Shown here in pieces: positions 2,319-63,669 of a DNA stretch of 64,000 bases. The notes below the pieces were generated by a model. That model was given only the letters and a program-made list of their open reading frames with translations, did not search any database and was not told the DNA's origin. Numbering within the stretch: the first letter of the stretch is position 1; the number at the start of each line of letters is the position of its first letter. A program made the translations under genes and the position numbers. The stretch is from Candidatus Margulisiibacteriota bacterium (GTDB lineage: Bacteria > Margulisbacteria > WOR-1 > O2-12-FULL-45-9 > XYB2-FULL-48-7). The DNA lies in contig JBAZKJ010000002.1 of assembly GCA_041650855.1 (NCBI GenBank), forward strand, positions 284,280 to 348,279. The letters are read 5' to 3'.

Positions 2319-3386
2319 TTACTCCGGCTTGATCCGTTTGACCTGGGGGCCGAAATAGCTGATCTTGTTGCCGCCGCGGATCTCGCGCCTAAGCTTTTCG
2401 CGTTTGACCAGATAGACCCGGGTGCCGATCGTGGTCGTTTCCGTGAAAACCGCGTCTAACAGCCGCTCTTTTTTTTCCGGCAGGCAGAGGACTTCAAGCT
2501 TGACCGCCGCTCGCTGCTTTTTCATCCTGATCGGCTGGACCGAAGCGTCCAGCGCGCCGGCCTTCATCAGCCGGGCGATCGCCCGGTCGTAATGCCGGGG
2601 ATCCATGTCATCGATGTTGGCCTCAATTTGTAAAATTGCATCATGCTCGGTCGGCGGCAGCGCCTCGCCGATAAAGACCCGGAGCAGATTGGGCCGGGAA
2701 AGGTCGAGCGAGCCGGCGCCATAACCGATATTTTCGACCTTCAGTTTCGGCATCTCCGCGAACTCGGCGATGGCGGTAATGATCGCCGCGCCGGTCGGCG
2801 TGACCAGTTCGCCTTTAAGGCCGGTCGAGTAAGTTGGCGCTCCTTTAAGCAATTCCGCCGTCGCCGGGGCGGGATTCGGGAGTATTCCGTGGGCGTGGGC
2901 GATCTTGCCTTGGCCGGCGGGCAGAGGGGAGCAATAAACTTTTTCGATCCCGAGCTTTTCCAGGCCGAGGCAAGCGCCGACAATGTCGATGATCGCGTCG
3001 ACCGCGCCGACCTCGTGGAAATGGACCTTGTTGACCGGGAGGCCATGGACTTTCGCTTCGGCTTGCGCCAGCCGCCGGAAGATCTGGCCGCTTAGCTTTT
3101 TGACCGGTGCCGACAACTTGCTCCGTTTAATGATCTTTAAAATGTCGGCTAAATTACGAGGCCGATCGTTTTTCTTGAAGTTAACGTTAAAGTAAGTGCC
3201 CGCCAATCCTCTCTTTTTGGTCTTGGAGATTATGATTTGTGCCTTGTTTGGAAGTTTGAAGTTGGAAGTTTGAAGTTTCTGAAGCTCAGCCAATAGATAA
3301 GTCTTATCTAAACCAGCATCCAGCAATGCTCCTAGTATCATATTCCCAGAGATACCGGTAGGGCAGTCAAAGTAGGCGATCTTCAT
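2319..3386 (-). CDS. larC: LarC-like nickel insertion protein (DUF111) of nickel-pincer nucleotide cofactor biosynthesis
   Basis: N-terminus MKIAYFDCPTGISGNMILGALLDAG is characteristic of LarC/DUF111. 355 aa. Overlaps the upstream larB by 4 nt. Confidence 0.7.
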   Translation of the reverse strand: MKIAYFDCPTGISGNMILGALLDAGLDKTYLLAELQKLQTSNFKLPNKAQIIISKTKKRGLAGTYFNVNFKKNDRPRNLADILKIIKRSKLSAPVKKLSGQIFRRLAQAEAKVHGLPVNKVHFHEVGAVDAIIDIVGACLGLEKLGIEKVYCSPLPAGQGKIAHAHGILPNPAPATAELLKGAPTYSTGLKGELVTPTGAAIITAIAEFAEMPKLKVENIGYGAGSLDLSRPNLLRVFIGEALPPTEHDAILQIEANIDDMDPRHYDRAIARLMKAGALDASVQPIRMKKQRAAVKLEVLCLPEKKERLLDAVFTETTTIGTRVYLVKREKLRREIRGGNKISYFGPQVKRIKPE

Positions 3387-4051
3387 TTGGCGATATAGTA
3401 GGCCATCACGGCGGCGCCGAAGCCGTTATCGATATTGACGACCGCGATGCCGGGCGAGCAGGCGTTGAGCATCGTCAGCAGGGCGGACAGGCCTTTAAAA
3501 CTGGCGCCGTAGCCGACGCTGGTCGGCACGGCGATGATCGGTTTGTCGATCACGCCGCCAAGGACCGAGGGGAGGGCCCCTTCCATGCCGGCGACGACGA
3601 TGATGACCCGGGCTTTTTTAAGTTTGTCCAGGTTGCTGAACAGGCGGTGGATGCCGGCGACGCCGACGTCGAACAAGCGCTCGACCCTCAGCCCGAGGAA
3701 GGCGGCGGTGACGGCGGCCTCTTCGGCCACGGGGAGGTCGGCGGTCCCGGCGGTCACGATGGTAACCAAGGAACCCGAGACTGAACGTCTCGGTCTCTTG
3801 AGAGCGGTAATGACCCCGGCAGTTTCGTGATACTGCGCGGCTTTAATGACTTTACGGACGGCGGTGAACGCCTTACGGTCCGCCCGGGTAGCCAGGACGT
3901 CATGGCCGTGCGACCAGATCTTTTTAGCTATCTCAGCGACCTGTCGCGGAGTCTTCCCGGCGCAATAAATGACCTCGGGGAATCCTTTCCGTTGGTGGCG
4001 ATGGTGGTCGACCTTGGCAAAGCCGAGATCTTCGTAATGGCGCGACTTCAT
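3383..4051 (-). CDS. larB: LarB-like pyridinium-3,5-biscarboxylic acid mononucleotide synthase (PurE/AIR-carboxylase-like)
   Basis: N-terminus MKSRHYEDLGFAKVDHHRHQRKGFPEVIYCAGKT and a C-terminal PurE-like fold. 222 aa. Confidence 0.7.
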   Translation of the reverse strand: MKSRHYEDLGFAKVDHHRHQRKGFPEVIYCAGKTPRQVAEIAKKIWSHGHDVLATRADRKAFTAVRKVIKAAQYHETAGVITALKRPRRSVSGSLVTIVTAGTADLPVAEEAAVTAAFLGLRVERLFDVGVAGIHRLFSNLDKLKKARVIIVVAGMEGALPSVLGGVIDKPIIAVPTSVGYGASFKGLSALLTMLNACSPGIAVVNIDNGFGAAVMAYYIAK

Positions 4052-6323: not shown

Positions 6324-9300
6324 ATGAAAAACGAAGCATTAGTCTTAAGCGCGGTCCTTGTTCCCGTTATCGGGGCATTCTTGCTGCCGCTGGCCGGTTT
6401 TATCTCCAAGCAGCTCCGTAACTGGCTGGCGCTGCTGCTGGTGGCGGTCCCGTTGCTTGCCTCGGCCTTGCTGCTGCCGCACGCTTTCAGCGGGGCGAAA
6501 GTTCTCTGTTTCATTATCGACCCGCTCTCGCTTTTTATGGCGCTGGTCTCCGCCGGCATCGGCCTGATCATTGTGCTCTACTCATTCGATTATATCGACC
6601 ATTACGCTAACCAGAACGAATATTACCTGATGGTCGTCCTTTTCCTCGGCTCAATGATGGGGCTGGTCTACTCCAATAACCTGATCGCTTTGTACGTCTT
6701 TTGGGAACTGACGGCGATCGCCAGCTGGCGGCTGATCGGCTTTTACCGGGAGCCCAAAGACGTGCTTAAGGCCGATAAGGCTTTTTTGGTCACCGCTTTT
6801 GGCGCGCTTCTGATGCTGTTGGCTTTTGTCGCTATTTATCAATTGACCGGAACATTGGAATTGACCGGGATGGTCGGTTACGCGCTCCCCGGGTCGCTGG
6901 TCGCCCTGATCCTGGCCGGTATCTTGAGCAAATCGGCCACACTGCCGTTCCATACCTGGCTTCCCGACGCCGGCGTCGCGCCTTCGCCGGTCACCGCCTT
7001 GCTTCACGCGGCGGTCCTGGTCAAGATCGGCGTTTACGTTTTTGCCCGGTTGTTCCTGGCCACCTTTGCCATTGGGCAATTCTGGCATACCGCCGTACCG
7101 GCGATCGCGGCGGTCAGCGCGCTGGTCGCGGCCGGCGCCGCGCTGGTCGAGACGGACATCAAACGGATCGTTGCTTATTCCACGGTCAGCCAGATCGCTT
7201 TCATTTTCTTCGGGTTGGCGATCAATAACGTGATCGGAGTGGTGGGGGGACTTCTTTACATATTAATGCACGGCCTGGCCAAAGCCGGGCTCTTCCTCTC
7301 GGCCGGGATCATCGAACAGAACACCAAGACCAAAGATATCACCTTGATGGGCGGCTTGATCAAAACAATGCCGGTGACGGCGGTCTCGTTCCTCTTTTGC
7401 GCCTTTTCCGTCATGGGGATACCGCCTTTTGGCGGATTCTTCAGCAAGTATTTGGTGATCGCCGGCGGCCTGCGGAGCGGCGAGCTTTGGATCACGTTCG
7501 CTTTTGTGCTCGGCGCCTGCCTGACGATCCTTTATCTGCTCCGGCTCTTTACCCTGGTCTTTCTCGGCGAGCCGCGCGGAGTAACGGCCAAGGAAGGGTC
7601 CTGGTTGATGGTCGCCTGCGTCGCTTTCCTGGCTTTTCTTTCCCTGGCCGCGACGCTGGTCATCAACCTGCCGCTTAACTATTTAATGAAAGCTTTCGGC
7701 CACGCCGACCTCGGCCTGGCGGTGCTTTTCCGGTTCGATCATTTCGGCGTGCTGATCGCCGGGGCGATCGTGGCGTTCGCCGCCCTGGTGGCGCTTTATT
7801 CGCTGGTCTTCATGAAGGGGAAAGAGGGGGCCGGCCAGTTCTGGCTTTATCTGTTATTGACCGTGATCATGTCGGTCGGGGCGGTCCTGGCGAACAACCT
7901 GATCCTCTTCCTCTTTTTCTGGGAAGGTTTGCTGTTGACCCTGTTTGGTATGATCTACATAGGCGGACGCGCTTCGTTTCGCACGGCCGTTAAAGCGTTC
8001 GTGATCGTCGGGATCACCGATCTTTGCTTAATGGCGGGCTTGGCCTTGACCGGTTTACTGGCCGGGACCTTTGTGATGTCGGCAATCGCGCTGCCGGTCA
8101 CCGGTTGGCCGGCGCTGGCCTTTGTCCTCCTGATGATCGGCGCGCTGGCGAAGGCGGGCGCGATGCCGTTCCACAGCTGGATCCCGGACGCGGCCAAGGA
8201 CGCGCCGCTGCCGTTCATGGCTTTTGTCCCCGGCGCGCTGGAAAAGCTGCTCGGCATCTACTTTTTGACCCGCATCAGTCTGGAGCTGTTCCGTCTGACT
8301 CCGCATTCCTCGCTTAGCTATTTGTTAATGATCATCGGCGGCGTCACGATCGTTCTGGCGGTCATGATGGCGCTGATCCAAAAGGATTTTAAAAAGCTCC
8401 TTTCTTATCACGCGATCAGCCAGGTCGGCTACATGGTCCTGGGGATCGGCACGGCGGTGCCGGCCGGCATCGTCGGCGGCCTGTTCCACATGCTCAATAA
8501 CGCTTTGTATAAATCGTGCCTTTTCCTGACCGGCGGCGCGGTGGAAAAAGAGGCGGGGACGACCGACCTCAGCAAGCTCGGCGGTCTTGGCGGGAAAATG
8601 CCGGTCACTTTCGGCTGTTTCATTATTGCCGCTCTTGCGATCTCGGGGGTGCCGCCGTTCAACGGTTTCTTCTCCAAAGAGCTGATCTATGACGGAGCGC
8701 TCGAGCGGGGTTGGCTCTTCTATCTGATGGCGGTCGGCGGCTCGTTCCTGACCGCCGCTTCGTTCCTGAAGCTTGGCCACGCGGCGTTCCTGGGCAAGGT
8801 TGCGGCGGCCAACCAAAACGTCAAAGAAACTTCGTGGCTGATGCTGCTGCCGATGATCGTGATCGCGGCGGTCTGCGTCCTCTTCGGCGTTTACAACGTT
8901 CTGCCGGTCAAGTATTTGCTCCAGCCGGTACTGGCGCCGCATTTGCTGGAAGGGCATAACTTTTACGGCTTGCCGTCCAATCTCCTGCTGATCGCGATCA
9001 CTCTCCTGGTCCTGATCGGCGCGCTGCTCAATCATCTTTACGGCGTCAGGAAGACCGGCCAGGGCTTAGGGGCGGTCGATCATATCCACTACGCACCGGG
9101 GCTCCATCAGGCTTATGATCTGGCCGAAAAGAAGGCTTTTGACCCTTATGAGATTGGGATGAAAGGGGTCGGGGCCCTGTCGCGGCTCTTGTATAAGCTG
9201 GACCGCTTGATCGACGGATTTTACGAGGTGGTCGTGGTTAAACTGGTGGAGTGGGGATCGGCCCTGACCCGCCGGGTGCAGAGCGGCAACGTCAGCGCCT

Positions 9301-9356
9301 ATGTCGCCTGGTCGCTGGTCGGCGGCCTGACCGTGCTCTGGTTGGTGTTGAGGTAA
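6324..9356 (+). CDS. Hydrogenase membrane subunit: fusion of two NuoL/MnhA-type antiporter-like modules
   Basis: 1010 aa, polytopic. Two separate copies of the proton-antiporter core (…GIPPFGGFFSKYLVIAG… and …GVPPFNGFFSKELIYDG…). Confidence 0.7.
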   Translation: MKNEALVLSAVLVPVIGAFLLPLAGFISKQLRNWLALLLVAVPLLASALLLPHAFSGAKVLCFIIDPLSLFMALVSAGIGLIIVLYSFDYIDHYANQNEYYLMVVLFLGSMMGLVYSNNLIALYVFWELTAIASWRLIGFYREPKDVLKADKAFLVTAFGALLMLLAFVAIYQLTGTLELTGMVGYALPGSLVALILAGILSKSATLPFHTWLPDAGVAPSPVTALLHAAVLVKIGVYVFARLFLATFAIGQFWHTAVPAIAAVSALVAAGAALVETDIKRIVAYSTVSQIAFIFFGLAINNVIGVVGGLLYILMHGLAKAGLFLSAGIIEQNTKTKDITLMGGLIKTMPVTAVSFLFCAFSVMGIPPFGGFFSKYLVIAGGLRSGELWITFAFVLGACLTILYLLRLFTLVFLGEPRGVTAKEGSWLMVACVAFLAFLSLAATLVINLPLNYLMKAFGHADLGLAVLFRFDHFGVLIAGAIVAFAALVALYSLVFMKGKEGAGQFWLYLLLTVIMSVGAVLANNLILFLFFWEGLLLTLFGMIYIGGRASFRTAVKAFVIVGITDLCLMAGLALTGLLAGTFVMSAIALPVTGWPALAFVLLMIGALAKAGAMPFHSWIPDAAKDAPLPFMAFVPGALEKLLGIYFLTRISLELFRLTPHSSLSYLLMIIGGVTIVLAVMMALIQKDFKKLLSYHAISQVGYMVLGIGTAVPAGIVGGLFHMLNNALYKSCLFLTGGAVEKEAGTTDLSKLGGLGGKMPVTFGCFIIAALAISGVPPFNGFFSKELIYDGALERGWLFYLMAVGGSFLTAASFLKLGHAAFLGKVAAANQNVKETSWLMLLPMIVIAAVCVLFGVYNVLPVKYLLQPVLAPHLLEGHNFYGLPSNLLLIAITLLVLIGALLNHLYGVRKTGQGLGAVDHIHYAPGLHQAYDLAEKKAFDPYEIGMKGVGALSRLLYKLDRLIDGFYEVVVVKLVEWGSALTRRVQSGNVSAYVAWSLVGGLTVLWLVLR

Positions 9357-9359
9357 ACA

Positions 9360-10766
9360 ATGAGCTATTTACTGTTATTTTTGCCTTTGGCCGCGCTGAT
9401 CGCGATGAACCTGGTCCCGGCCCGGTTCCGGACCAGGAGCGCGCTGGCGCTGGCCGCGGCGATCTGCCTGGCGCAGATCGCGATCGTGCTGGTCAATCCG
9501 ACCGGTTTTTGGGACCGGCTGATCATTGCCGAGCTGGAACCGGTCTTCGGTTTTAATCTGCAGATCAGCGGCCTGGCCGTGGTCATGATGCTGACGGCCG
9601 GTTTGGTCTCGCTGGCCGCCCTGCTGGTGGCCGCCGCTACCTGGCGGCGGGAAAATGACCTGCTTAATTTTTCTTCCCTCCTGATGATCGCCCTGATCGG
9701 GATGAACGGGATCGCCATGGTCAACGGCCTGTTCCAGCTCTACATCTTTATCGAAGTGACCGCCCTGGCGACGTTCGTCCTGATCTGCCTCCGCCATGAC
9801 CGGCTGGCTTTTGAGGGGGTCTGGAAATATCTCCTGCTTTCCGTCGTCGCCAGCGTCATGATGCTGGCGGCCATCGGCCTTGGGTTGATCTTCGCGCCGA
9901 GCAATACTTTCATCGCCCTGCGGCAGGCGATCCCGGCCGCGGCCGGGAGTTTCGCGCCCCGGGCGGCGATCGCCCTTTTTCTCAGCGGACTGCTGATCAA
10001 GAGCGGGGTCGTGCCGTTCCACGGCTGGCTGCCCGACGCGTACTCGTCGGCGCCCGGCCCGGTCGCCGTTCTTTTGGCCGGCATTATCACTAAGGCTACC
10101 GGCGTCTTTGCCTTGATCCGTTTAGTCAGCGAAGTTACCGGCCCGGCGCCGGTCGCCAATATCCTCTTATTGACCGGAGCGCTGTCGGTCGTGGTCGGCG
10201 CGCTGGCGGCCCTCGGCCAAACGGACGTTAAAAGACTGCTGGCTTATTCGAGCATCAGCCAGATCGGCTACATTATATTGGCGTTAGGCGCGGGGACCAG
10301 ACTGGGCTTGTTGGCCGCGCTGTTCCATTTCTTTAATCATGCTGTGTTCAAGTCCCAGCTGTTCGCCAATGCCGCCGCGCTGGAAGAACAGACCGGCAGT
10401 ACCGATCTGAACAAGATCGGCGGACTGGGCGGGAAAATGCCGGTGACCGGGGTAACGATGCTGATCGCTTCGCTCTCGACGGCCGGTTTGCCGCCGCTGG
10501 CCGGGTTCTGGAGCAAACTGGCGGTCGTCATGGCGCTCTGGTTCGCCGGCCAATATGTTTACGCGTTGATCGCCGTTTTGGCCAGCGTGTTGACCCTGGC
10601 GTATTTCCTGCTGCTGCAGCGGAAACTGTTCTTTGGCCGGGTCGATCCGGCGATGAGCGGCGTGACCGAGGCCGGCGCGCTGTTACTGCTGCCGGCGGTC
10701 GGCCTGTCCGTTATCACCGTGCTGCTGGGCCTGGCGCTGCCGCTCTTTTGGCTGGTGGGGAGATAA
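9360..10766 (+). CDS. Antiporter-like membrane subunit (NuoN/NuoM/MnhD-like)
   Basis: 468 aa, with a GLPPLAGFWSKLAVV core motif. Confidence 0.7.
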   Translation: MSYLLLFLPLAALIAMNLVPARFRTRSALALAAAICLAQIAIVLVNPTGFWDRLIIAELEPVFGFNLQISGLAVVMMLTAGLVSLAALLVAAATWRRENDLLNFSSLLMIALIGMNGIAMVNGLFQLYIFIEVTALATFVLICLRHDRLAFEGVWKYLLLSVVASVMMLAAIGLGLIFAPSNTFIALRQAIPAAAGSFAPRAAIALFLSGLLIKSGVVPFHGWLPDAYSSAPGPVAVLLAGIITKATGVFALIRLVSEVTGPAPVANILLLTGALSVVVGALAALGQTDVKRLLAYSSISQIGYIILALGAGTRLGLLAALFHFFNHAVFKSQLFANAAALEEQTGSTDLNKIGGLGGKMPVTGVTMLIASLSTAGLPPLAGFWSKLAVVMALWFAGQYVYALIAVLASVLTLAYFLLLQRKLFFGRVDPAMSGVTEAGALLLLPAVGLSVITVLLGLALPLFWLVGR

Positions 10767-10767
10767 G

Positions 10768-11259
10768 ATGTTGAACCTGGCATTATTGATCTTGCTCGTG
10801 ATCGTCGCGCTCTGGACCGCGCTGACGCCGCTGCTGTTGCGGTCGGCGATCGGCCTGGCTCTGACCAGCGTCCTGTTGACGGTGATCATGTTCCGCTTTA
10901 ACGCCCCGTACGCGGCCGCGTTCGAACTGTCGGTCTGTGCCGGTTTGATCCCGGTCATTTTTATCAGCATCATCAGCTTAACTCACCGCCTGCCGCTCAA
11001 AGAGTTCCTAAAAAGGCGCGAGAGCCGGATCAGCCGTTTCTGGCCGCTGCCGCTCTTGCTGCTGGCCGCAGCGGCCGGTCTTTATTTTGTCCGGGTCCCG
11101 CTCAATCTGGCTCTGCCCTGGCCGGAAACGATCGGCGATGTCCGGGTCGTCCTCTGGGAATACCGGCGGATCTACCTGTTCGGGCAGGTCATGGTCCTGC
11201 TGGCCGGAGTGTTCGGCGTCCTGGTGCTTTTCCGGGAGAGGAAAAAAGATGAACATTGA
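10768..11259 (+). CDS. Mrp/Mbh small membrane subunit (MnhB-like)
   Basis: 163-aa hydrophobic protein in an operon with antiporter modules. Start overlaps the previous stop. Confidence 0.5.
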   Translation: MLNLALLILLVIVALWTALTPLLLRSAIGLALTSVLLTVIMFRFNAPYAAAFELSVCAGLIPVIFISIISLTHRLPLKEFLKRRESRISRFWPLPLLLLAAAAGLYFVRVPLNLALPWPETIGDVRVVLWEYRRIYLFGQVMVLLAGVFGVLVLFRERKKDEH

Positions 11260-11569
11260 GCAAACGCTGTTTTTCTGGCAATACGCGTCGGCGGCGATCT
11301 TATTGATAGTGATCGGCTTCTACTGCCTGCTGGTCACTTACAACCTGTTCCGCGTCCTGATCGGCCTGGAATTGCTGATCAAGGGGGTAACTTTGTTCCT
11401 GCTGGCCGCCGGGGTGTTGGGCGGGCACGGCGCGGTCAGCCAGGGGATGATCATTACCGTGATCGTGATCGAGGTCGTGGTGATGATCGTCGCCGCCGGG
11501 GTAGTGCTGGCTTTCCAGAACGAATATGATTCGCTTAACGTCAAGAACGCGAGGCAACTGAAAGGATGA
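11249..11569 (+). CDS. NuoK/MnhC-like small membrane subunit
   Basis: MNIEQTLFFWQYASAAILLIVIGFYCLL..., three TM segments typical of NuoK/MnhC. The ORF-track 11087 start is an upstream extension overlapping the preceding gene; the ATG at 11249 follows AAAAAG. Confidence 0.55.
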   Translation: MNIEQTLFFWQYASAAILLIVIGFYCLLVTYNLFRVLIGLELLIKGVTLFLLAAGVLGGHGAVSQGMIITVIVIEVVVMIVAAGVVLAFQNEYDSLNVKNARQLKG

Positions 11570-11901
11570 ACATGCTGCTTAGTCCGCCGCTCGCTTTTTT
11601 GGTCTTGCTGCTGGCCGCGCTCGGCCTGTACTGGCTGCTGAGCCCGCTCGCTTTCAAGGTTAAACAAGCGCCAAGCGGCCTGACCAAGGCTTACACCGGC
11701 GGCGAAGAGGTCAAGACCCACCGGGTCCGGCCCGATTACAGCCAGTTCTTTCCCTTCGCCTTTTTCTTCACCATCCTGCACGTGGTCACCCTGGTGGTGG
11801 CGACCGTGCCGCTGGCCGCGCCCGGTTCGGTCGCGATCGCCGTTATTTACCTGGGCGGGGCCGCCTTCGGCCTGTTGCTCCTCTTCCGGAGGCAGGGATG
11901 A
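11566..11901 (+). CDS. Hydrogenase-associated small membrane protein
   Basis: 111-aa hydrophobic protein, translationally coupled within the operon. Confidence 0.45.
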   Translation: MNMLLSPPLAFLVLLLAALGLYWLLSPLAFKVKQAPSGLTKAYTGGEEVKTHRVRPDYSQFFPFAFFFTILHVVTLVVATVPLAAPGSVAIAVIYLGGAAFGLLLLFRRQG

Positions 11902-12335
11902 AGATCATCGATAAGATCGTCCACTGGTCGCGGCTCAAATCGCCGTGGATCCTCCATTTCAACACCGGGGCTTGCAACGCCTGCGACATCGAGATCATCG
12001 CGGCGCTGACGCCGCGCTTCGACCTGGAGCGATTCGGCGTCCAGCTCAAGGCGACGCCGCGCCATGCCGATATCCTGGTCTGTTCCGGCCCGGTCACCCG
12101 CCAGATCCGCGACCGGCTGGTGCGGATCTACGAGCAGATGGCCGAGCCGAAGTTCGTCGTCGCGGTCGGCAGCTGCGCCACCAGCGGCGGCGTTTTTTCC
12201 GGGCTGTACAATGTCCAGGGAGGGATCGATCAGGTCATCCCGGTCGACGCCTATATCCCCGGTTGTCCGGCCAGCCCGCAGGCGATCATCGACGGCGTGG
12301 TCAAATTGCTTAAGAAACTGGAGGGAGCGGCATGA
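11898..12335 (+). CDS. [NiFe]-hydrogenase small subunit (NuoB/MbhJ-like, [4Fe-4S])
   Basis: GACNACD, GSCATSGG and GCP cysteine motifs of the NuoB-type proximal cluster. 145 aa. Confidence 0.85.
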   Translation: MKIIDKIVHWSRLKSPWILHFNTGACNACDIEIIAALTPRFDLERFGVQLKATPRHADILVCSGPVTRQIRDRLVRIYEQMAEPKFVVAVGSCATSGGVFSGLYNVQGGIDQVIPVDAYIPGCPASPQAIIDGVVKLLKKLEGAA

Positions 12336-12799
12336 GCGATCTCACGCAGATTAAACAGCAGCTGGAAGATAAATTCGTTTACCTTAAAGGCGGCATCCGT
12401 GAGCAGGGGGAGCGCCGTCTCTGGAGCGAGGTCAGCTACGACCTCTTTTTCGACGTGTTCGGCTACGCGGTCAAAGAACTCGGATTTGACGCGCTCTGCA
12501 CGATCACCGGGCTGGATGAGGGAGAATACCTGGCTTTCATCTATCACCTGAGCAAGGGTGGGCTGGTCTTTAACCTGAAAACGAAGATCTTAAAGGACAA
12601 GGAAGATCTCCGGACGGTTATCGACTATTTCCCCGGCGCGGCGATCTATGAGCGGGAAGTCGTCGACCTGCTCGGCGTGAAAGTCGCTGGATTGCCGGAC
12701 GGCGTCCGTTATCCGCTGCCGGACGACTGGCCGGCCGGCCAATATCCGCTCCGCAAGGACTGGGACCCTAAGGTCCTGGACCAGAAGGAGGCCGGCTAA
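12332..12799 (+). CDS. NuoC-like (30 kDa) hydrogenase subunit
   Basis: 155 aa, NuoC/HycE N-domain-like. Start overlaps the previous stop. Confidence 0.8.
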   Translation: MSDLTQIKQQLEDKFVYLKGGIREQGERRLWSEVSYDLFFDVFGYAVKELGFDALCTITGLDEGEYLAFIYHLSKGGLVFNLKTKILKDKEDLRTVIDYFPGAAIYEREVVDLLGVKVAGLPDGVRYPLPDDWPAGQYPLRKDWDPKVLDQKEAG

Positions 12800-12800
12800 C

Positions 12801-14006
12801 ATGGACGATAAAGACCGGGATATGCTGATCTCGATCGGGCCGCAGCACCCGGCGTTAAAAGAGCCGACCAGCTTTAGCCTGGCTCTGCGCGGCGAAAAGA
12901 TCGACGCGATCCAGGTCAAGATCGGCTACAACCACCGCGGGATCGAAAAAGGCTGCGAATCGCGCACCTATATCCAGGACATGTACTTGCTGGAACGGAT
13001 CTGCGGGATCTGTTCCCACGCCCATTCCACCGCTTACGTCCAGGCGGTGGAGACGATCGCCGGTCTGCAGGTCCCCCGGCGGGCCTTGTATATCCGGACA
13101 CTGATCGGCGAACTGGAGCGGATCCACAGCCATCTCCTCTGGCTCGGCGTGGCCGGCCACGAGATCGGCTTTGACACGTTATTAATGTATACCTGGCGCG
13201 ACCGGGAAGCGGTCATGGACCTGCTGGCCGAGCTGACCGGCAACCGCGTCAACTACGGCATTAACACGATCGGCGGCGTCCGCCGCGATCTCACCAAAGA
13301 AGAGGGGGAGAAGATCCTCAAGATCATCGACAAACTGGAGGAACAGACCAAATACTACGTGCAGATCGCGCAGGAGGAATCGACCTTGATCCAGCGGCTT
13401 TCCGGGGTCGGCAAGCTGCCCAAAGCGGACGCGCTCCGGCTTGGCGCGGTCGGGCCGACCGCCCGGGCGTCCAGCATCGCTTTTGACGTCCGCAAGGACG
13501 ACCCGTACGCCGCTTACGGCGAGCTCGATTTCAAAGTGGTCAGCGCCGACCAGGCCGACGTTTACGGCCGGACGGTCGTCCGGCTCGGCGAACTGCTGGA
13601 AGCGTATTCGCTCATCCGGCAGGTGATCAAGAACCTGCCGGACGGGCCGATCGCGGTCCGCGCGCCGCGCAAGATCCCGGCGGGCGAAGCGCTGAGCCGC
13701 TACGAAGCGCCGCGCGGCGAAGACGTCCATTATGTCAAAGCGAACGGCACGGATATGCCCGAACGGGTCAAAGTGCGCGCGCCAACATTGGCGAACAGCC
13801 AGGCGATCGCCAAGATGCTGGAAGACCGTTATCTGGCCGACCTGCCGATCGTGGTGGCGGCGATCGATCCGTGCTTCTCCTGCACCGACCGGGCGATCGA
13901 GGTCGAAGGGAAGGGGCTGATGTCGTGGGAAAAACTGCGGCAGTACAGCATCGACTGGTACCGTAAACAGGGAGTGGATTTCCGCAATGTTAAGCGCATT
14001 ATTTAA
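12801..14006 (+). CDS. Group 4 [NiFe]-hydrogenase large subunit (NuoD/MbhL-like)
   Basis: N-terminal RICGICSHAHS and C-terminal DPCFSCTDR nickel-iron ligating motifs, with a ~35-aa C-terminal extension as expected for protease-processed large subunits. Confidence 0.88.
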   Translation: MDDKDRDMLISIGPQHPALKEPTSFSLALRGEKIDAIQVKIGYNHRGIEKGCESRTYIQDMYLLERICGICSHAHSTAYVQAVETIAGLQVPRRALYIRTLIGELERIHSHLLWLGVAGHEIGFDTLLMYTWRDREAVMDLLAELTGNRVNYGINTIGGVRRDLTKEEGEKILKIIDKLEEQTKYYVQIAQEESTLIQRLSGVGKLPKADALRLGAVGPTARASSIAFDVRKDDPYAAYGELDFKVVSADQADVYGRTVVRLGELLEAYSLIRQVIKNLPDGPIAVRAPRKIPAGEALSRYEAPRGEDVHYVKANGTDMPERVKVRAPTLANSQAIAKMLEDRYLADLPIVVAAIDPCFSCTDRAIEVEGKGLMSWEKLRQYSIDWYRKQGVDFRNVKRII

Positions 14007-14925
14007 TATCCTGGTCTTTCCGGGACTGTTATTCCTGTCGTTCCTCGGGACGACGGCGGAATACATCGACCGGAAGCTTTATGCCCGGTTCCAGAACCGG
14101 GTCGGCCCCCCCTGGTTCCAGCCGGTCGCCGACCTGATCAAGCTGTTCGGCAAGAGCGAAGTCGTGCCGGAGGAGGCGGACCCGGCGATGTTCAAACTAG
14201 TGCCGCTGGTCGCCCTGGCGGCGACTTGCGCCGCTTACCTCTACATCCCGATCTGGGGAACTAAAGCGCTTTATTATTTCAAGGGCGACCTGATCGTCAT
14301 CCTTTATCTCTTGACCTTGCCGACCTTTACTTTTTTCCTCGGCGGTTGGTACTCGCGTTCGCTCTACGCCACGATCGGGGCGATCCGCTCGGTCACCCAG
14401 CTTTTTGCTTATGAAATCCCGCTGCTGTTGGCCGTGCTCGCCCCGGCGCTTTTAGCCAACACCTGGTCGCTGTCGGAAATGGTCGAGTATTACACGGTCC
14501 ACCCGTGGTACTGGCTTTTTAACCTGATCGGCTTCGGCGTCGCCCTGATCGCCCTGCTGGGCAAACTGGAGCGCGTCCCTTTTGACAGTCCGGAGGCGGA
14601 GACCGAGATCGTCGCCGGCAGCTTTACCGAATACAGCGGCCGCTTCCTGGCGTTCTTCCGCTGGGCGATCGATATCGAGGCGGTGGTCGGCGCGTCGCTG
14701 CTGGCGGCGGTTTTTATGCCGTTCGGCCTCGGCTATGCTCCGGTCGTCGCTTTTACGCTTTATTTAATAAAGATCCTGTTCATCCTTTGCCTGCTGACGC
14801 TCGCTCGGACGGTCATGGCCCGCCTGCGCATCGACCAGATGATCGATTTTTGCTGGCGGATCGTCGCGCCGGTCGCTTTTCTGCAGATCCTGATCAACCT
14901 GATCTTAAAGGAGATACTGCTCTGA
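13987..14925 (+). CDS. NuoH/MbhM-like membrane subunit
   Basis: 312 aa; NuoH signature RKLYARFQNRVGPP. Confidence 0.8.
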   Translation: MLSALFNILVFPGLLFLSFLGTTAEYIDRKLYARFQNRVGPPWFQPVADLIKLFGKSEVVPEEADPAMFKLVPLVALAATCAAYLYIPIWGTKALYYFKGDLIVILYLLTLPTFTFFLGGWYSRSLYATIGAIRSVTQLFAYEIPLLLAVLAPALLANTWSLSEMVEYYTVHPWYWLFNLIGFGVALIALLGKLERVPFDSPEAETEIVAGSFTEYSGRFLAFFRWAIDIEAVVGASLLAAVFMPFGLGYAPVVAFTLYLIKILFILCLLTLARTVMARLRIDQMIDFCWRIVAPVAFLQILINLILKEILL

Positions 14926-15326
14926 TGGCCAAAAAGATCTTTAGCCGCCCGGGGGCGATGATCGCCCTGGTCCTGAAAACGCTCTTCCAGAAACCGGCGA
15001 CGGTCGATTATCCGAACAAGCCGATGCCGATGACGAAAAACTTCCGGGGCAAACTTAATTTTTTACCGGAGAAGTGCATCGGCTGCCTGATCTGCATGAA
15101 AGATTGCCCGACCGACGCGATCGAGATCAAGAAGCTCGGCGACAAGAAGTTCGAAATGGATATCGACCTGGGAAAATGCATCTACTGCGGCCAGTGCGTC
15201 GACAGCTGTCCGAAAAAAGCGCTGGCGATCACCCCGAACTTCGAACTGGCCCAGTTCTCTCACGACAAGCTGAGGATCGTTTTTAATGCCGACGGACCTG
15301 AAGGCGGAACTGACCAGCCGTCTTAA
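14925..15326 (+). CDS. NuoI/MbhN-like 2x[4Fe-4S] ferredoxin subunit
   Basis: Two CxxCxxCxxxCP motifs (CIGCLICMKDCP, CIYCGQCVDSCP). The ATG at 14925 overlaps the previous TGA. Confidence 0.8.
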   Translation: MAKKIFSRPGAMIALVLKTLFQKPATVDYPNKPMPMTKNFRGKLNFLPEKCIGCLICMKDCPTDAIEIKKLGDKKFEMDIDLGKCIYCGQCVDSCPKKALAITPNFELAQFSHDKLRIVFNADGPEGGTDQPS

Positions 15327-15765
15327 GGGGGCGACGCGGGTCGTCCTGCTCGGCGTCGGCTCCGACCTGCGCGGCGACGACGCGGCCGGCATGCTGGTCG
15401 CCGCACAACTGCAAAACGCCCCAAAACCGACGGTCCTCCTGGGCGGGACCGCGCCGGAAAACCTGACCGGCGAGATCAAAAAACTCAAGCCTTCCCATTT
15501 ATTGATCGTTGACGCGGCCGAGTTGAAAGCGGCGCCGGGGACGGTCAAACTCCTGACGCCGGAGGAGATCGGCGGCTTTTCTTTTTCCACCCACGCTTTG
15601 CCGCTCAAGGTGATGATCGATTTTATCCTGGCCGATTGGCAATGCGCCGTGACCATAATCGCGATCCAACCGGCCGACACGCGTTTCGGCGCGCCGGTCC
15701 ATCCGGCGGTAAACCGGGCGGTCGGGGAGCTTGCCGACAGCCTAAAAGCGGTTATTTCTTCTTAG
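15286..15765 (+). CDS. Hydrogenase maturation endopeptidase (HycI/HyaD family)
   Basis: LLGVGSDLRGDDAAGMLVA motif typical of hydrogenase C-terminal processing proteases. 159 aa. Confidence 0.75.
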   Translation: MPTDLKAELTSRLKGATRVVLLGVGSDLRGDDAAGMLVAAQLQNAPKPTVLLGGTAPENLTGEIKKLKPSHLLIVDAAELKAAPGTVKLLTPEEIGGFSFSTHALPLKVMIDFILADWQCAVTIIAIQPADTRFGAPVHPAVNRAVGELADSLKAVISS

Positions 15766-16101: not shown

Positions 16102-17253
16102 ATGAAAAAATGGAATTTGTTGCTTGGGCCTTGTTTGTTTTTGGTGCTTTGTTGCTTGTTGTTTACCCTTACCGGTTGCGGCGGGGGCGGAACGGCGGCG
16201 ACCACGACCACGATCGCGCCGACGACCACGGCGGCGCCGGCCACGACCACCACGACCGGCACCTCTGCCACGACCACTACGACCGGCTCGTCGCCAACGA
16301 CGACCGCCGCCCCGGGTACAACCACAACCACTACAACGACCAGCACCACGACCACGACCTTGACCCCCGGCAGCGTTTGGACCCAGGCGACCGCTGAAGC
16401 CGCGTTCTCTGGTAGGTCCGGGCAGTCCAGCTTGGTGTTTGACAACAAGATCTGGGTGATCGGTGGCATGGGGGCTGGTTCGATCGGGCTAAAGGATGTT
16501 TGGAATTCGAGCAACGGGGTCAACTGGACCAGGGTGACGGACGAGGCGGCGTTCGGCCCTAGGAGCGACCATGGCAGCGCCGTCTTCCTGAACAAAATGT
16601 GGGTTGTCTGCGGCCGAGACCCGTCCGTTTCTTATTCGAACGACGTCTGGTCTTCCAGCGACGGCGTCTTGTGGGAAAGGGCAACGGCCGAAGCGACCGG
16701 CATTGCCAGATGGCGCCCATCCGTGATCGCGTACGATAATAAGCTCTGGATCATCGCCGGTTATACCAGCGACGATGTTCCGACCAACGAAGTCTGGAGT
16801 TCGGCCGACGGGATTATCTGGGAATGCGTCACTCGGGAAGCGGCGTTCGAGCCCAGATTCAGTGCCGGCGTGGTTTCCTTCGAAGGGAACGTCGGCTTGA
16901 TGGGCGGTTATAATAATTATACGTCCACTTATTTTAACGACGTCTGGTTAACTCAGGACGGAACGAACTGGGCGAAACTCGCGCCGACGGCCGATTATTC
17001 CGCCAGGGGCGGACAGACCAGCGTGGTTGCCGCCGGCAAGGTTTGGCAGATCGGCGGCGATAACGGCGGGGTGCTGCATGACGTTTGGAATATCAGCAAC
17101 GTTGACAATACCTGGACGGAAGTGACTGCGGCGGCGGCGTTCAGCGCCCGGGGCAGCCACAGCAGTGTCGTTTTTAATAATAAACTGTGGGTCATCGGCG
17201 GTTGGAATGGGAGCGCCGCCTTGAACGATGTCTGGTATTCACCCTTGCCATAG
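16102..17253 (+). CDS. Surface lipoprotein with Thr-rich stalk and Kelch-type beta-propeller
   Basis: Signal peptide plus lipobox LTGC, then GGGGTAATTTTIAPTTTAAPATTTTTG stalk, then ~6 Kelch-like blades (…IWVIGG…DVWNSSNGVNWTRV…). Confidence 0.65.
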   Translation: MKKWNLLLGPCLFLVLCCLLFTLTGCGGGGTAATTTTIAPTTTAAPATTTTTGTSATTTTTGSSPTTTAAPGTTTTTTTTSTTTTTLTPGSVWTQATAEAAFSGRSGQSSLVFDNKIWVIGGMGAGSIGLKDVWNSSNGVNWTRVTDEAAFGPRSDHGSAVFLNKMWVVCGRDPSVSYSNDVWSSSDGVLWERATAEATGIARWRPSVIAYDNKLWIIAGYTSDDVPTNEVWSSADGIIWECVTREAAFEPRFSAGVVSFEGNVGLMGGYNNYTSTYFNDVWLTQDGTNWAKLAPTADYSARGGQTSVVAAGKVWQIGGDNGGVLHDVWNISNVDNTWTEVTAAAAFSARGSHSSVVFNNKLWVIGGWNGSAALNDVWYSPLP

Positions 17254-17284
17254 CTAACCTTTCCCTTGCTGGTCAGGTTGAAGG

Positions 17285-18907
17285 TTGCGTATAAATAATA
17301 GGGGGGAAATGTTAGTGAATATTAAATTGGCGGGCTTCGTTGGTTTGGTTGGCGCTTTTTGTTTTCTGCTCATAACCGTTTCCGGTTGCGGCGGAGGCGG
17401 GACGGCGGCCACGACGACCACGATCGCGCCGACGACCACGGCGGCGCCGGCCACGACTACCACGACCGGCAGCTCCGCCACGACCACCACGACCGGCTCG
17501 TCGCCAACAACGACCGCCGCGCCGGGGACAACTACCACGACGACGACCGGCACGACCACGACGACCGCCGCGCCGGGGACAACTACGACAACTACTATGA
17601 CCAGCACGACCACCACGACGATCGGCACATTGACGATCACGATGGTCCCGGCTTCCGGCTCGCTCGAGGCGAACAGCATACCGGTGACGATCGAAGCGAA
17701 CGCCGGCGGCGCCACGATCTATTACACAACCGACGAATCGACCCCGACCACGGCTTCGCTGGTCTATTCCGGCCCGATCACGGTCGAAACCTCGCAGGTC
17801 ATCAAGGCCAAGGCTTTCATGGCCGGTTGGACGGACAGCGCCGTCGGGACCAGGAATTATGACCTCTACTGGTGGCAGCCGCTCGGTTCGGGTTTGAGTA
17901 GCGGCGGCTGGGGATATGCGCTTTATTGCGATGGAGCGAACGGCCTCTACGTTGGCGGTGATTTTACTTCTGCCGGCGGGGTTAACGCGGCCAATCTTGC
18001 CAAATGGAATATCGCCCTCCAAACCTGGGAAGCGGTGGGCAATACGGCGTCAGATGTTAATGATATGGTCTGGGCGATCGACGGGATCGGTTCGGCGCTT
18101 TACATCGGCGGAAAATTTACCGCGCCGGCCATAAAGGTCGCGAAATGGGAAAGCAGCGCCTGGTCGGCATTGGGCGGCGGGCTTGATAAAAATGTCCAAG
18201 CTCTGGCGCACAACGAAGCCGGCAGATTATTCGCCGGCGGCGTCTTTACAACAGAGGTTGGTTGGGCCGCGGAAAGCATGATCGCTTACTATGAGAGCGG
18301 CCATTGGAACAATATGACCAACGGCCTTAATGACTCGGTCTCGGCGATGGTTTACGACGGAATTGGGAGTTTATATGCCGGCGGGGCTTTTACCTGCGAA
18401 GCGATCGGCGCTTCATCATTAAGCCGGGTCGCGTATTGGAACGGCAGCTGGCACAATGTCGGCAGTGAGATCCCTGATACCGGTTCCAATACTGTTTATG
18501 CCTTAGCTCTGGATGCGGCCAATAACCTTTATGCCGGCGGCACGTTTATTGTCACCAGCTCGGGTTATTATCAATATTTGGCCAAGTGCAGCGATCCGGC
18601 CGGGACGCCGGCCTGGAGCGCGCTGGGAAATCCGAACGGGGTGGTCAACGCGCTGAAAATGGCCGGTAACGGCGCGTTGGTCGCCGGCGGAGACTTTACC
18701 TCGATCGACAGCGTTACTGTCAACCATATTGCCATCTGCCTTAATCCCGGGACTTCTCCGCAGTGGCAAGCTATCAGTAACGGAACGGACGGGAATATCA
18801 TGGCCGTTGCCTTTGACAGCAGCGGGAATCTTTATGTTACCGGCGGTTTCACCAAAGCGGGGGATGTAACAGTCAATTATGTCGCCAAATGGGGGAAGAA
18901 ATTTTAA
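17285..18907 (+). CDS. Surface lipoprotein with Thr-rich stalk, CHB_HEX_C/Fn3-like module and unclassified beta-propeller repeats
   Basis: Lipobox VSGC and a stalk identical to the neighbours. A GATIYYTTDESTPT module, then 7 repeats of LY(V/A)GG(D/A)FT. Confidence 0.6.
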   Translation: MRINNRGEMLVNIKLAGFVGLVGAFCFLLITVSGCGGGGTAATTTTIAPTTTAAPATTTTTGSSATTTTTGSSPTTTAAPGTTTTTTTGTTTTTAAPGTTTTTTMTSTTTTTIGTLTITMVPASGSLEANSIPVTIEANAGGATIYYTTDESTPTTASLVYSGPITVETSQVIKAKAFMAGWTDSAVGTRNYDLYWWQPLGSGLSSGGWGYALYCDGANGLYVGGDFTSAGGVNAANLAKWNIALQTWEAVGNTASDVNDMVWAIDGIGSALYIGGKFTAPAIKVAKWESSAWSALGGGLDKNVQALAHNEAGRLFAGGVFTTEVGWAAESMIAYYESGHWNNMTNGLNDSVSAMVYDGIGSLYAGGAFTCEAIGASSLSRVAYWNGSWHNVGSEIPDTGSNTVYALALDAANNLYAGGTFIVTSSGYYQYLAKCSDPAGTPAWSALGNPNGVVNALKMAGNGALVAGGDFTSIDSVTVNHIAICLNPGTSPQWQAISNGTDGNIMAVAFDSSGNLYVTGGFTKAGDVTVNYVAKWGKKF

Positions 18908-20061
18908 CCGGCAATAAGAACAGGGAGTTCGGGCTTATTGTTTGTTTGCTGTGTATTGCTTGTTACTTTTTAATTAACCTGACTGGTTGCGGCGGGGGCG
19001 GAACTGCGGCGACCACGACCACGATCGCGCCGACGACCACGGCAGCTCCGGCCACGACCACCACGACCGGCAGCTCTGCCGCGACCACCACGACCGGCTC
19101 GTCGCCAACGACGACGACCGGCCCCACGACCACAACTTCGGCTGCCACGACAACTACAACAACTACAACTACGACAACCACGACCACTCCCCCCCCGGAA
19201 ACTTACGGTTTTGACAGCAAATGGGGGAGCTATGGGACAGGAGAAGGGGAATTTAGATCGCCGGCCGGGATAGCTGTCCTGCCGAGCGGCGGGGACGTTT
19301 TTGTCAGCGACACAAGCAATAATCGGGTGCAAAAATTCACTTCGACCGGCGCATTTATCGATAAATTCGGCACGTTCGGTACCTTTGAGGCCAATTATAA
19401 AAATCCGAACGGGCTCTGTTTTACCAGGACTTATGATACTTTTCTGGTCGCGGATAGAAGCAACCACCGGTTCGTTGAACGGAGTCTTGATGGTAGTGCT
19501 CCAGAGGTGTGGGGAACGCAGGGGACCAGCGACGGTCAATTGGATTATCCGCGTGATGTGGGGGTAGAGGGGGCATTAAATCAGGCTTTTGAAGTTGATG
19601 CCGCCAGGGTCCAAGTGTTCGGCGCACATACCGGTGCTTTTATTAGGAGATGGGGAACAGGCGGTGCGGCGCCGGGGCAGTTTGATTCGCCCTGCGGCAT
19701 CGCGGTCGATCGCACCGCTCAATGGGTCTACGTTGCCGATACCGGTAATCACCGGGTCCAAAAATTCAGTTTTTACGGCACGTTTGAGGCAACCTGGGGA
19801 TCGTATGGGTCAGGCAATGGTCAATTTCATTCTCCCAAGGGGATAGAAGTAGATACTGACGGCAACGTTTATGTGGCCGACACCTTGAACCATCGCGTCC
19901 AGAAATTTAATCCAACGGGGAGTTTAATGGCGATCTGGGGAAGTTACGGAACCGGGGATGGTCAGTTTGTCACCCCGGAAACGCTGGCCGTTTACGGAAC
20001 GAAAGAGGTTTATGTGGCCGATACCGGCAATCACCGGATCCAGAAGTTCGTAAAGCAATAA
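18889..20061 (+). CDS. Surface lipoprotein with Thr-rich stalk and NHL-repeat beta-propeller
   Basis: Lipobox LTGC and the same stalk. Repeated NHRVQKF / NHRIQKF NHL motifs. Confidence 0.65.
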   Translation: MGEEILTGNKNREFGLIVCLLCIACYFLINLTGCGGGGTAATTTTIAPTTTAAPATTTTTGSSAATTTTGSSPTTTTGPTTTTSAATTTTTTTTTTTTTTPPPETYGFDSKWGSYGTGEGEFRSPAGIAVLPSGGDVFVSDTSNNRVQKFTSTGAFIDKFGTFGTFEANYKNPNGLCFTRTYDTFLVADRSNHRFVERSLDGSAPEVWGTQGTSDGQLDYPRDVGVEGALNQAFEVDAARVQVFGAHTGAFIRRWGTGGAAPGQFDSPCGIAVDRTAQWVYVADTGNHRVQKFSFYGTFEATWGSYGSGNGQFHSPKGIEVDTDGNVYVADTLNHRVQKFNPTGSLMAIWGSYGTGDGQFVTPETLAVYGTKEVYVADTGNHRIQKFVKQ

Positions 20062-46136: not shown

Positions 46137-46137
46137 G

Positions 46138-47361: not shown

Positions 47362-47408
47362 CGAGTTTCCGTTCCGGCCTATAATTGTCGGTAACAGGGG
47401 GAGATAAC

Positions 47409-49305: not shown

Positions 49306-49306
49306 G

Positions 49307-63403: not shown

Positions 63404-63477
63404 GCGCCCATAGCTCAGCTGGATAGAGTACTTCCCTGCGAAGGAAGGGGTCGGGCGTTCGAATCGCCCTGGGCGCA
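63404..63477 (+). tRNA. tRNA-Arg, anticodon read as GCG
   Basis: Hand-folded cloverleaf: acceptor GCGCCCA/TGGGCGC, D-arm GCTC…GAGT, anticodon stem CTTCC/GGAAG with loop CTGCGAA, T-arm GGGCG-TTCGAAT-CGCCC. No encoded CCA. Confidence 0.6.
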
Positions 63478-63484
63478 TATTTCT

Positions 63485-63571
63485 GGAAGGGTGTCCGAGT
63501 GGTTGAAGGAGCACGCCTGGAAAGCGTGTTTACGGGAAACCGTAACGAGAGTTCGAATCTCTCCCCTTCCG
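63485..63571 (+). tRNA. tRNA-Ser (GGA)
   Basis: Acceptor GGAAGGG/CCCTTCC, anticodon loop CTGGAAA, long variable arm, T-loop TTCGAAT. Confidence 0.75.
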
Positions 63572-63582
63572 AATTTTTTCTT

Positions 63583-63669
63583 GGAGGAGTGGCCGAGTGG
63601 TTGAAGGCGGACGCCTCGAAAGCGTCTTTACCAGCAATGGTAACGGGGGTTCGAATCCTCCCTCCTCCG
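63583..63669 (+). tRNA. tRNA-Ser (CGA)
   Basis: Acceptor GGAGGAG/CTCCTCC, anticodon loop CTCGAAA, long variable arm, T-loop TTCGAAT. Confidence 0.75.

Follow-up and report, generated by a model that had tools for sequence, protein, structure and literature searches.

The described systems nearest to the locus reported here are the membrane-bound hydrogenase Mbh of Pyrococcus furiosus (MbhA-N, PDB 6CFW, HydDB group 4d), the Pyrococcus MBS (Mbx) complex (PDB 6U8Y), complex I (NDH-1), and the Hyf/formate hydrogenlyase (FHL) of Escherichia coli (PDB 7Z0S, group 4a). The number of antiporter-like subunits rises from one in MBH through two in MBS to three in complex I (PMC8165549), and according to an older survey, hydrogenases seem to have no NuoA or NuoJ (PMC3144371). 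We analyzed a stretch of 64,000 nucleotides from a Candidatus Margulisiibacteriota bacterium (assembly GCA_041650855.1, contig JBAZKJ010000002.1, positions 284,280 to 348,279 of the forward strand), referred to below as the window. An operon at window positions 6324 to 15765 is likely to encode ten structural subunits of a membrane-bound energy-converting [NiFe]-hydrogenase together with its maturation protease, and the enzyme would most likely evolve H2 from reduced ferredoxin while exporting H+ or Na+.

The hydrogenase family to which this operon belongs is already catalogued and is not new, yet it is uncharacterized. Candidatus Velamenicoccus archaeovorus was reported to carry a 4g nickel-iron membrane-bound hydrogenase by HydDB (PMC10066038), and 4g enzymes were reported for Ace Lake Omnitrophota and Cloacimonadota and for Endomicrobium (PMC8542988, PMC11257099). 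Group 4g is described as uncharacterized and presumed to be ferredoxin coupled (PMC5037454). It is a loosely clustered catch-all, assigned in HydDB through nearest-neighbor sequence similarity and defined by no function. Comparable Mrp antiporter-linked group 4 hydrogenases that have no oxidoreductase module were described in Saganbacteria by Matheus Carnevali et al. (PMC6349859).

Results

We confirmed eleven open reading frames (ORFs), all on the + strand, across window positions 6324 to 15765. The junctions between successive genes measure, in order, +3, +1, -11, -4, -4, -4, +1, -20, -1, and -41 nt, and with junctions this tight the eleven genes are very probably co-transcribed and translationally coupled. 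For gene 4 (ATG 11249, 106 aa) and gene 10 (ATG 14925, 133 aa) we corrected the start codon to the most likely position, dropping longer TTG-initiated ORFs from a mechanical ORF list, and the gene calls on the source contig match both corrected starts. The genes, their order, and their coupling had been proposed in a first-pass annotation of the window, and the ORFs and junction lengths bear this out.

The large (catalytic) subunit is encoded as a 401-aa precursor at 12801..14006 and matches Complex1_49kDa (PF00346) and NiFeSe_Hases (PF00374). It reads RICGICSHAH (L1) and DPCFSCTDR (L2), with all four Ni-Fe cysteines present, and continues into a 37-aa C-terminal tail. In a PDB search, its best solved relative was P. 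furiosus MbhL (E 1.4e-97, 330 bits, 49% identity over 355 columns); E. coli HycE scored 271 bits (39% identity), Thermus Nqo4 218 bits, and MbsL 191 bits, and both MbhL and HycE scored above every NuoD chain. The solved mature MbhL chain terminates at ...DPCLSCTDR, exactly where the tail of the window protein begins, which fits cleavage by HycI after the Arg of the window large subunit. The gene for a HycI-type large-subunit C-terminal endopeptidase (15286..15765, 159 aa; HycI PF01750, E 5.1e-17) is the last of the operon, and it is also the final gene of the cassette in relatives. To compare loci we used the best 80 of at least 576 confirmed relatives, taken from a scan of one genome per species. 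Among these, L2 is DPCFSCTDR in 80 of 80, L1 follows R[IV]CGICS[HY][SAT]H, and the tails are 36 to 54 aa long.

The remaining subunits of the catalytic module surround the large subunit gene. The NuoB-like hydrogenase small subunit (11898..12335, 145 aa; Oxidored_q6, E 1.5e-32, with NCBIfam nuoB_fam above its cut-off) has four Cys for one [4Fe-4S] cluster, and its CxxC, GxCxxxGG, and GCP motifs are found in 75 of 77 relatives. The NuoC-like subunit (12332..12799, 155 aa; Complex1_30kDa, E 3.4e-21) and the large subunit are separate genes in the window and are fused into 550- to 595-aa proteins in some Margulisiibacteriota and Omnitrophota relatives (P0014, P0015, P0018, and others). Downstream lies the NuoH/MbhM-like membrane anchor (13987..14925, 312 aa; NADHdh, E 3.3e-75), which matched MbhM (136 bits) and Nqo8 (134 bits) in the PDB search and whose acidic set (E143, E195, D200, E203, E205, E207, E215, and E231) is 100% conserved. 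It is followed by the NuoI-like 2x[4Fe-4S] ferredoxin-type subunit (14925..15326, 133 aa; Fer4 families in Pfam, NuoI and FHL iron-sulfur subunit in NCBIfam) with two CxxCxxCxxxCP motifs, CIGCLICMKDCP and CIYCGQCVDSCP. The first-pass annotation had described this part of the operon well. Pfam and NCBIfam agree with its NuoB-like, NuoC-like, large, NuoH-like, and NuoI-like 2x[4Fe-4S] subunits and its HycI-type maturation protease, the L1 and L2 motifs and the C-terminal tail had been read correctly, and the JKLMN-like gene order that it compared to Pyrococcus Mbh is identical, NuoB-NuoC-large-NuoH-NuoI corresponding to mbhJKLMN.

The locus thus shows the features that mark group 4: a NuoD-homologous large subunit with both CxxC Ni-Fe motifs; NuoB-, NuoC-, NuoI-, and NuoH-like subunits with at least one antiporter-like subunit; and a large-subunit C-terminal extension with a gene for a specific endopeptidase predicted to cleave it. 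The annotation of the large subunit in databases would suit a different enzyme, a non-hydrogenase oxidoreductase of the complex I or Mbx/Ehr type. Its top NCBIfam names are NuoD and FpoD, all below their own cut-offs, and JGI annotates several relatives as NuoD. However, Ehr and Mbx are defined by lacking the Ni-Fe-ligating residues (PMC6349859), and in this family all four Ni-Fe cysteines are invariant in 80 of 80 relatives and are accompanied by a cleavable tail and a dedicated HycI. Because these cysteines, the tail, and HycI are present, a derivative of the Mbx, Ehr, or complex I type is ruled out by the Ni-Fe motifs, and we assign that reading almost no probability. Judged by its sequence, the enzyme is a genuine group 4 energy-converting [NiFe]-hydrogenase with MbhL as its nearest solved relative, in line with what the first-pass annotation had argued. 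Since a true Ni-Fe large subunit takes the place of NuoD in the window, whereas the NuoD of complex I has a quinone site and no Ni-Fe cysteines, the acceptor would be H+ rather than quinone.

The membrane arm begins with a fused double antiporter-like subunit of 1010 aa (6324..9356; two Proton_antipo_M stretches and Proton_antipo_N) and a third antiporter-like subunit of 468 aa and MrpD/MbhH/NuoN type (9360..10766; Proton_antipo_M), so the three antiporter-like modules of the first-pass annotation, two of them fused, were all found. Module 1 of the fused protein (residues ~1 to 457) is of the NuoL/MrpA type, with NuoL (235 bits) and MrpA (211 bits) as best PDB matches, and module 2 (residues ~458 to 1010) is of the MrpD/MbhH type by its best PDB hits. 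The best PDB matches of module 3 were MbhH (188 bits), MrpD (177), and MbsH (169). The AlphaFold2 model of the fused protein (pLDDT 88.5, pTM 0.87), whose top Foldseek matches were NuoL, MrpA, and MrpD, places a transmembrane (TM) helix at residues 887 to 911, a 45-residue helix at 941 to 985, and a final TM helix at 990 to 1009. In this model the C-terminal end of module 2 is a TM15, lateral helix, TM16 unit, and this extension can be aligned with MbsH' of Pyrococcus MBS. By eye, we equated the Glu, two Lys, His, and further Lys of each module with the TM5/TM7/TM8/TM11/TM12 set of residues: E128/K203/K234/H316/K320 in module 1, E534/K610/K641/H722/K730 in module 2, and E132, K214, K245, H323/H327, and K331 in module 3. 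Because these residues are 97 to 100% conserved among about 60 relatives, none of the three modules looks degenerate.

The fusion is the sole distinguishing trait of the window copy and is specific to its lineage. Of 59 complete relatives, 56 encode the two modules separately, as proteins of about 485 aa (module 1) and 620 aa (module 2). The ~1000-aa fusion is confined to near relatives of the window, namely, locus L002 and three database proteins (998 to 1010 aa; 88%, 83%, and 69% identity). We considered an assembly artifact and rejected it, since fusions of the same length occur in independent assemblies at these identities. An alignment across the junction showed that TM1-TM2, the first two TM helices of module 2, are missing from the window fusion; because an even number of helices was lost, the topology is preserved. 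Independent module 1-2 fusions of ~1100 aa elsewhere (L018, P0125, and P0126) do not have this two-helix deletion.

Three small membrane subunits are encoded between the antiporter-like genes and the catalytic module. The 163-aa protein (10768..11259) gave a weak match to Oxidored_q3 (NuoJ) over residues 14 to 153 (E 4.9e-6, below the curated Pfam cut-off) and to the MbhD Pfam family in its N-terminal half (E 2.9e-4, residues 8 to 73), and its PDB matches were MbsD (E 9e-5), MbhD (E 0.18), and, weakly, NuoJ. Its residue E53, which is 100% conserved, lines up with the Glu of IAEAAV in MbhD. These matches point to a NuoJ-like protein that would be the equivalent of MbhD and MbhE in one chain. 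The 106-aa NuoK/MrpC/MbhG-like protein (11249..11569; Oxidored_q2, E 8.5e-15) matched MbsG, MbhG, NdhE, and NuoK in the PDB. It carries the complex I-type Glu (E41), because its LIGLELLIKG stretch aligns residue for residue with LIGLEIMINA of E. coli NuoK, and E41, K45, and E75 are 100% conserved. Where MbhG has the Asp and His of LIDSGIH, the aligned residues of the 106-aa protein are Ile and Thr. We equate that Asp and His with Asp37 and His41, the O-site residues that form part of the sodium site proposed in Mbh (PMC8679088).

The 111-aa protein (11566..11901) occupies the gene position of mbhI in Pyrococcus. It had no match in Pfam or NCBIfam, nor in a single-sequence search of the PDB. 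A profile built from 22 members of its family matched ND3/NuoA chains only, over the full length (E 0.014 to 0.03), and found no 6CFW (Mbh) chain at E values up to 10; hhalign of the family against E. coli NuoA gave a P value of 3e-4 and a probability of 39%, in the same register as the profile match. Many of the more than 2,300 members of the family are named NADH:ubiquinone oxidoreductase subunit A by JGI and are hypothetical proteins in NCBI. The AlphaFold2 model (pLDDT 73.5) has TM1, a long loop, TM2, and TM3, and the loop motif of the family, Y-A-C-G-E-D, parallels FECGFD in the ND3 loop; the window copy reads YTGGEE. Foldseek found no significant match for the model, the chains 8q0j_A and 6zkh_A from complex I entries, probably ND3, appearing only at E ~6. 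We weakly assign the protein as a candidate NuoA/ND3-like three-helix subunit.

No MrpE, F, G, or B family was detected by Pfam or NCBIfam in the operon or among the called genes of the window. The description of the small subunits as Mrp-like in the first-pass annotation therefore needs revision: three small membrane subunits are present, but they are better described as NuoJ-like, NuoK-like with the complex I-type Glu, and weakly NuoA/ND3-like. Its Mbh/Mrp-type label for the whole operon holds for the catalytic module, which is nearest to Mbh and in the same order, and fails for the membrane part, with no MrpEFG, three antiporter modules, and an inventory resembling that of complex I.

Comparison with the described complexes showed the same division. 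Mbh contains the closest solved relatives of the large subunit, of the NuoH/MbhM-like subunit, and of antiporter modules 2 and 3, and it shares the J-K-L-M-N order, MbhD/E- and MbhG-like small subunits, a cleavable C-terminal tail, and a ferredoxin-type NuoI/MbhN entry subunit. The window operon differs from it in having neither the sodium module MbhA, B, and C (MrpE, F, and G) nor a recognizable MbhF; in having three antiporter-like modules rather than the single, MbhI-clamped antiporter MbhH; in having its lateral helix as part of module 2 instead of MbhI; in combining the MbhD and MbhE equivalents in one chain; in encoding at the mbhI position a subunit that matches NuoA/ND3 and not MbhI; and in not conserving the positions aligned to Asp37/His41 of MbhG.

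Complex I shares the NuoB/C/D/I peripheral module, NuoH- and NuoK-like subunits and, tentatively, NuoA- and NuoJ-like ones, as well as a lateral helix and three antiporter-like modules, one of which is of the NuoL/MrpA type and has Proton_antipo_N. Ten of the 11 modules of its core have clear homologues in the window; the NuoA-like match is weak and the NuoJ-like match is below the Pfam cut-off. Besides the Ni-Fe site, the window operon differs from nuoA-N in that its membrane genes come first, and its lateral helix is ~45 residues long and lies on the middle gene product. MBS shares the TM15-lateral helix-TM16 extension of module 2, and MbsD and MbsG are the best PDB hits of the 163- and 106-aa subunits; in contrast to the window enzyme, MBS has no Ni-Fe cysteines, retains homologues of MrpEFG, and contains two antiporter-like subunits (PMC8165549). 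Hyf/FHL shares the HycI-type protease and the 39% identical HycE; the window operon differs from it in having no formate dehydrogenase (FDH) and no HyfA/HycB partner, in its unfused NuoC, and in its NuoA- and NuoJ-like subunits. Tentatively, and at well under even odds, the operon may represent a true hydrogenase that carries a complete complex I-type membrane arm, with NuoA/H/J/K-like subunits and three functional modules tied by a lateral helix and with no Mrp sodium module.

The cassette is conserved, laterally distributed, and very widespread in bacteria and is no peculiarity of the window. Close relatives of the large subunit number in the thousands, with at least 70% identity throughout the best 120, and the scan of one genome per species gave at least 576 confirmed relatives. 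By tblastn with the eleven window proteins, 75 of the 80 loci hold a collinear cassette (54 complete and 21 ending at a contig edge), and the other five miss only a divergent small subunit or a module under the identity threshold. These best 80 loci span about nine phyla, among them Margulisiibacteriota (top identity, 92%), Omnitrophota, Planctomycetota (including Phycisphaerae), Spirochaetota, Thermotogae, Bipolaricaulota, Verrucomicrobiota, Endomicrobiales, and Bdellovibrionota. The complete genome of Candidatus Velamenicoccus archaeovorus (Omnitrophota) has a collinear locus (L068) with a large subunit that is 71% identical.

The surroundings of the cassette bear on the electron donor. We found no genes for FDH, carbon monoxide dehydrogenase (CODH), pyruvate:ferredoxin oxidoreductase, or Rnf in the window, and no FDH, CODH, or NuoEFG is attached to the operon or conserved beside the cassette in relatives, which leaves ferredoxin as the default donor. 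A three-module membrane arm recalls Hyf and the Mrp-linked 4b complexes (PMC3144371, PMC13582414), and a formate- or CO-coupled hydrogenlyase like those of groups 4a, 4b, and 4c could draw on a dehydrogenase encoded elsewhere in the genome. In those groups, however, FDH or CODH and a ferredoxin-like partner are encoded alongside. Neither they nor CooF or HyfA-type genes occur in or beside the window operon, none is a conserved neighbor of the cassette in the 80 relatives, and the large subunit is nearer MbhL than HycE. We regard a hydrogenlyase as very improbable and ferredoxin as the likely donor.

Other ion-motive systems are encoded nearby. A V-type ATPase operon (L084 1-3110) lies on the same contig, ~8.7 to 11.8 kb upstream of the window start, and its 156-aa c subunit carries L54, T57, Q58, Y61, Q108, and E137 (LPGTQGFY ... 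YQG ... VET). By eye, against the NtpK sequence, we take these residues to correspond to the Na+ ligands of the Enterococcus hirae enzyme. The ligands in that enzyme are L61, T64, Q65, Y68, Q110, and E139 (PMC10382590). The correspondence suggests a sodium-coupled V-type ATPase. The membrane pyrophosphatase (PPase) that the first-pass annotation had noted as an H+-PPase is confirmed at 61335..63332 (+ strand), and a cluster of three tRNA genes lies just 3' of it (63404..63669, + strand). The PPase carries GNTTAA and DLFESY, which are typical of the K+-dependent, Na+-type enzymes. In 24 related loci (for example, L017), the cassette likewise has a membrane PPase gene at its flank, at a median distance of 196 nt. 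Among the long flanking PPases that have the motif, 13 of 14 read GNTTKA, the K+-independent type. Genes for F-type ATP synthase lie within a few kilobases of the cassette in about 10 to 12 related loci, and those for ExbB/ExbD in about eight. The PPase, F-type ATP synthase, and ExbB/ExbD genes beside the cassette in relatives support a chemiosmotic role. The chemiosmotic lifestyle that the first-pass annotation had suggested from the PPase is thereby strengthened, together with the upstream V-type ATPase.

These partners also raise the question of the exported ion. In a sodium-pumping, Mbh-like enzyme, redox-driven proton movement would be turned into Na+ export, with at least one module acting as a Na+/H+ exchanger. 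The c-subunit residues and the PPase motifs in the window fit such an enzyme, and Mbh itself couples H2 evolution to Na+/H+ exchange (PMC8679088). Other observations point the other way: the proposed Na+ carriers of Mbh and Mrp, MbhA-C/MrpEFG, are absent from the operon, Ile and Thr replace Asp37/His41 of MbhG while the complex I-type Glu is present, and most PPases beside the cassette in relatives are of the GNTTKA type. We consider a sodium pump possible but doubtful, and the export of either H+ or Na+ stays within the reading that we prefer.

We also searched for expression signals. A sigma-70 promoter scan of the 116-nt region upstream of the operon found no promoter, terminator-like hits were at chance level only, and Rfam gave no riboswitch or RNA family near the operon, its only hits being the three tRNAs at the far window end. 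No obvious Shine-Dalgarno sequence is present at the operon start. A stem-loop (CCCCACC-loop-GGTGGGG, followed by TTTGT) lies at 6286 to 6310, ~15 nt 5' of the start codon, with a minimum free energy of -18.8 kcal/mol and a z score of -2.6. The 92%-related Margulisiibacteriota locus has an identical stem (L002 3463-3487) with a diverged loop and flanks. This stem-loop may be a regulatory or attenuator element in the 5' untranslated region.

The flanking genes are of other kinds. Upstream and on the opposite strand are genes for RarA/MgsA, a xylose isomerase-like TIM barrel protein, and LarB- and LarC-like proteins. The LarC-like nickel insertion protein (PF01969, E 1e-123) adjoins the LarB-like protein of the AIR-carboxylase family, and the pair (2319..4051, - strand) is divergent from the hydrogenase operon. 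By family name, the pair presumably belongs to nickel-pincer cofactor synthesis and not to Hyp maturation, and its closeness to an operon for a nickel enzyme may be coincidental. Downstream are a DUF4342 gene and three tandem lipoprotein-like genes (16102..20061, + strand). These share a near-identical N-terminal signal/Cys and Thr-rich linker, and each has a different beta-propeller (Kelch, Rax2/CHB_HEX_C, and NHL), so that they look like a cassette-style family of surface proteins. Farther downstream (44910..50530 and 55879..57837, + strand), several tandem genes encode MacB/FtsX-type ABC transporter permeases; ATPase genes accompany them, as do an ECF-type sigma factor gene and an outer-membrane/periplasmic adaptor efflux set.

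Discussion

Homology with Mbh, FHL, and complex I suggests how the complex would work. Electrons from reduced ferredoxin would enter at the two [4Fe-4S] clusters that the NuoI-like subunit binds and would reach the Ni-Fe site in the large subunit via the one cluster of the NuoB-like subunit; at that site, protons would be reduced to H2. The large subunit would be made as a precursor, from which HycI would cut the 37-aa tail after metal insertion. The energy would be relayed through the connecting region formed by the NuoH/NuoA/NuoJ/NuoK-like subunits to the three antiporter-like modules, which would export H+ (or Na+), and the resulting gradient would power the rotary ATPase along with further ion-coupled systems.

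The reaction is probably reversible, and the enzyme might run mainly in reverse, as Eha, Ehb, and Ech do in methanogens. H2 uptake and an inward flow of H+ or Na+ would then drive uphill ferredoxin reduction and supply low-potential electrons for biosynthesis or CO2 fixation. Group 4 enzymes are reversible, as discussed for Ech (PMC6349859), many of the Omnitrophota that have a 4g enzyme also have genes for Wood-Ljungdahl or acetogenic pathways (PMC10066038), and several ion channels per turnover would suit the high gear ratio of an uphill reaction. However, the lineage of the window organism is described as fermentative H2 producers (PMC6349859), no CO2 fixation genes were seen in the window, and Mbh, the closest characterized relative, evolves H2. 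We think it unlikely that reverse operation is the main mode, and H2 evolution from ferredoxin with ion export is the reading that we prefer.

Several points weigh against that reading. The three modules and connecting channel are hard to square with the small free energy between ferredoxin and protons if all of them pump outward, although the mismatch may be eased if H2 is kept very low, if some modules run as exchangers, or if the enzyme runs in reverse. The low scores of the NuoA/ND3-like subunit count here too. In the literature that we searched, we found no biochemical or structural study of any member of the clade, and the donor, direction, ion, and stoichiometry are inferred. The window holds no hyp genes by Pfam, as the first-pass annotation had noted, and a few small ORFs have no Pfam match. 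The idea that hyp genes are hidden among the unannotated ORFs of the window was rejected, the remaining ORFs matching unrelated Pfam families or none. Finally, the 4g label is indirect, resting on the literature for relatives, and the 4g group is polyphyletic (PMC13582414). In further 4g clades, among them Ech2 of Thermoanaerobacter kivui and the enzymes of Thermodesulfobium, the gene cluster is different and resembles that of Ech. We propose to call the enzyme a group 4 (4g-type) Mbh-related hydrogenase with a complex I-like membrane subunit set, rather than a Pyrococcus-type Mbh/Mrp.

The operon suggests that this Margulisiibacteriota organism can shed reducing power as H2 while storing energy as an ion gradient. 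The hydrogenase, the V-type ATPase, and the membrane PPase would make a minimal respiratory chain for a fermenter. The significance lies with the cassette family and not with the window copy specifically, and the complex I-like membrane part is its notable trait. Few membrane hydrogenases of uncultured anaerobes are as common as this cassette, which matched at least several hundred genomes at the species level, yet it sits in the uncharacterized 4g bin of HydDB. With its NuoA-, J-, and K-like subunits and three modules, it is a good candidate for structural work on the origin of complex I from hydrogenases, and it is also suited to asking how many ions a low-energy reaction can move. If the arm is indeed a complete complex I-type arm, the cassette would be the nearest living analogue of the proposed intermediate between hydrogenases and complex I. 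A structure could then show whether the three-module arm and complex I-like geometry preceded the loss of the Ni-Fe site and how the low-energy reaction from ferredoxin to protons drives such an arm.

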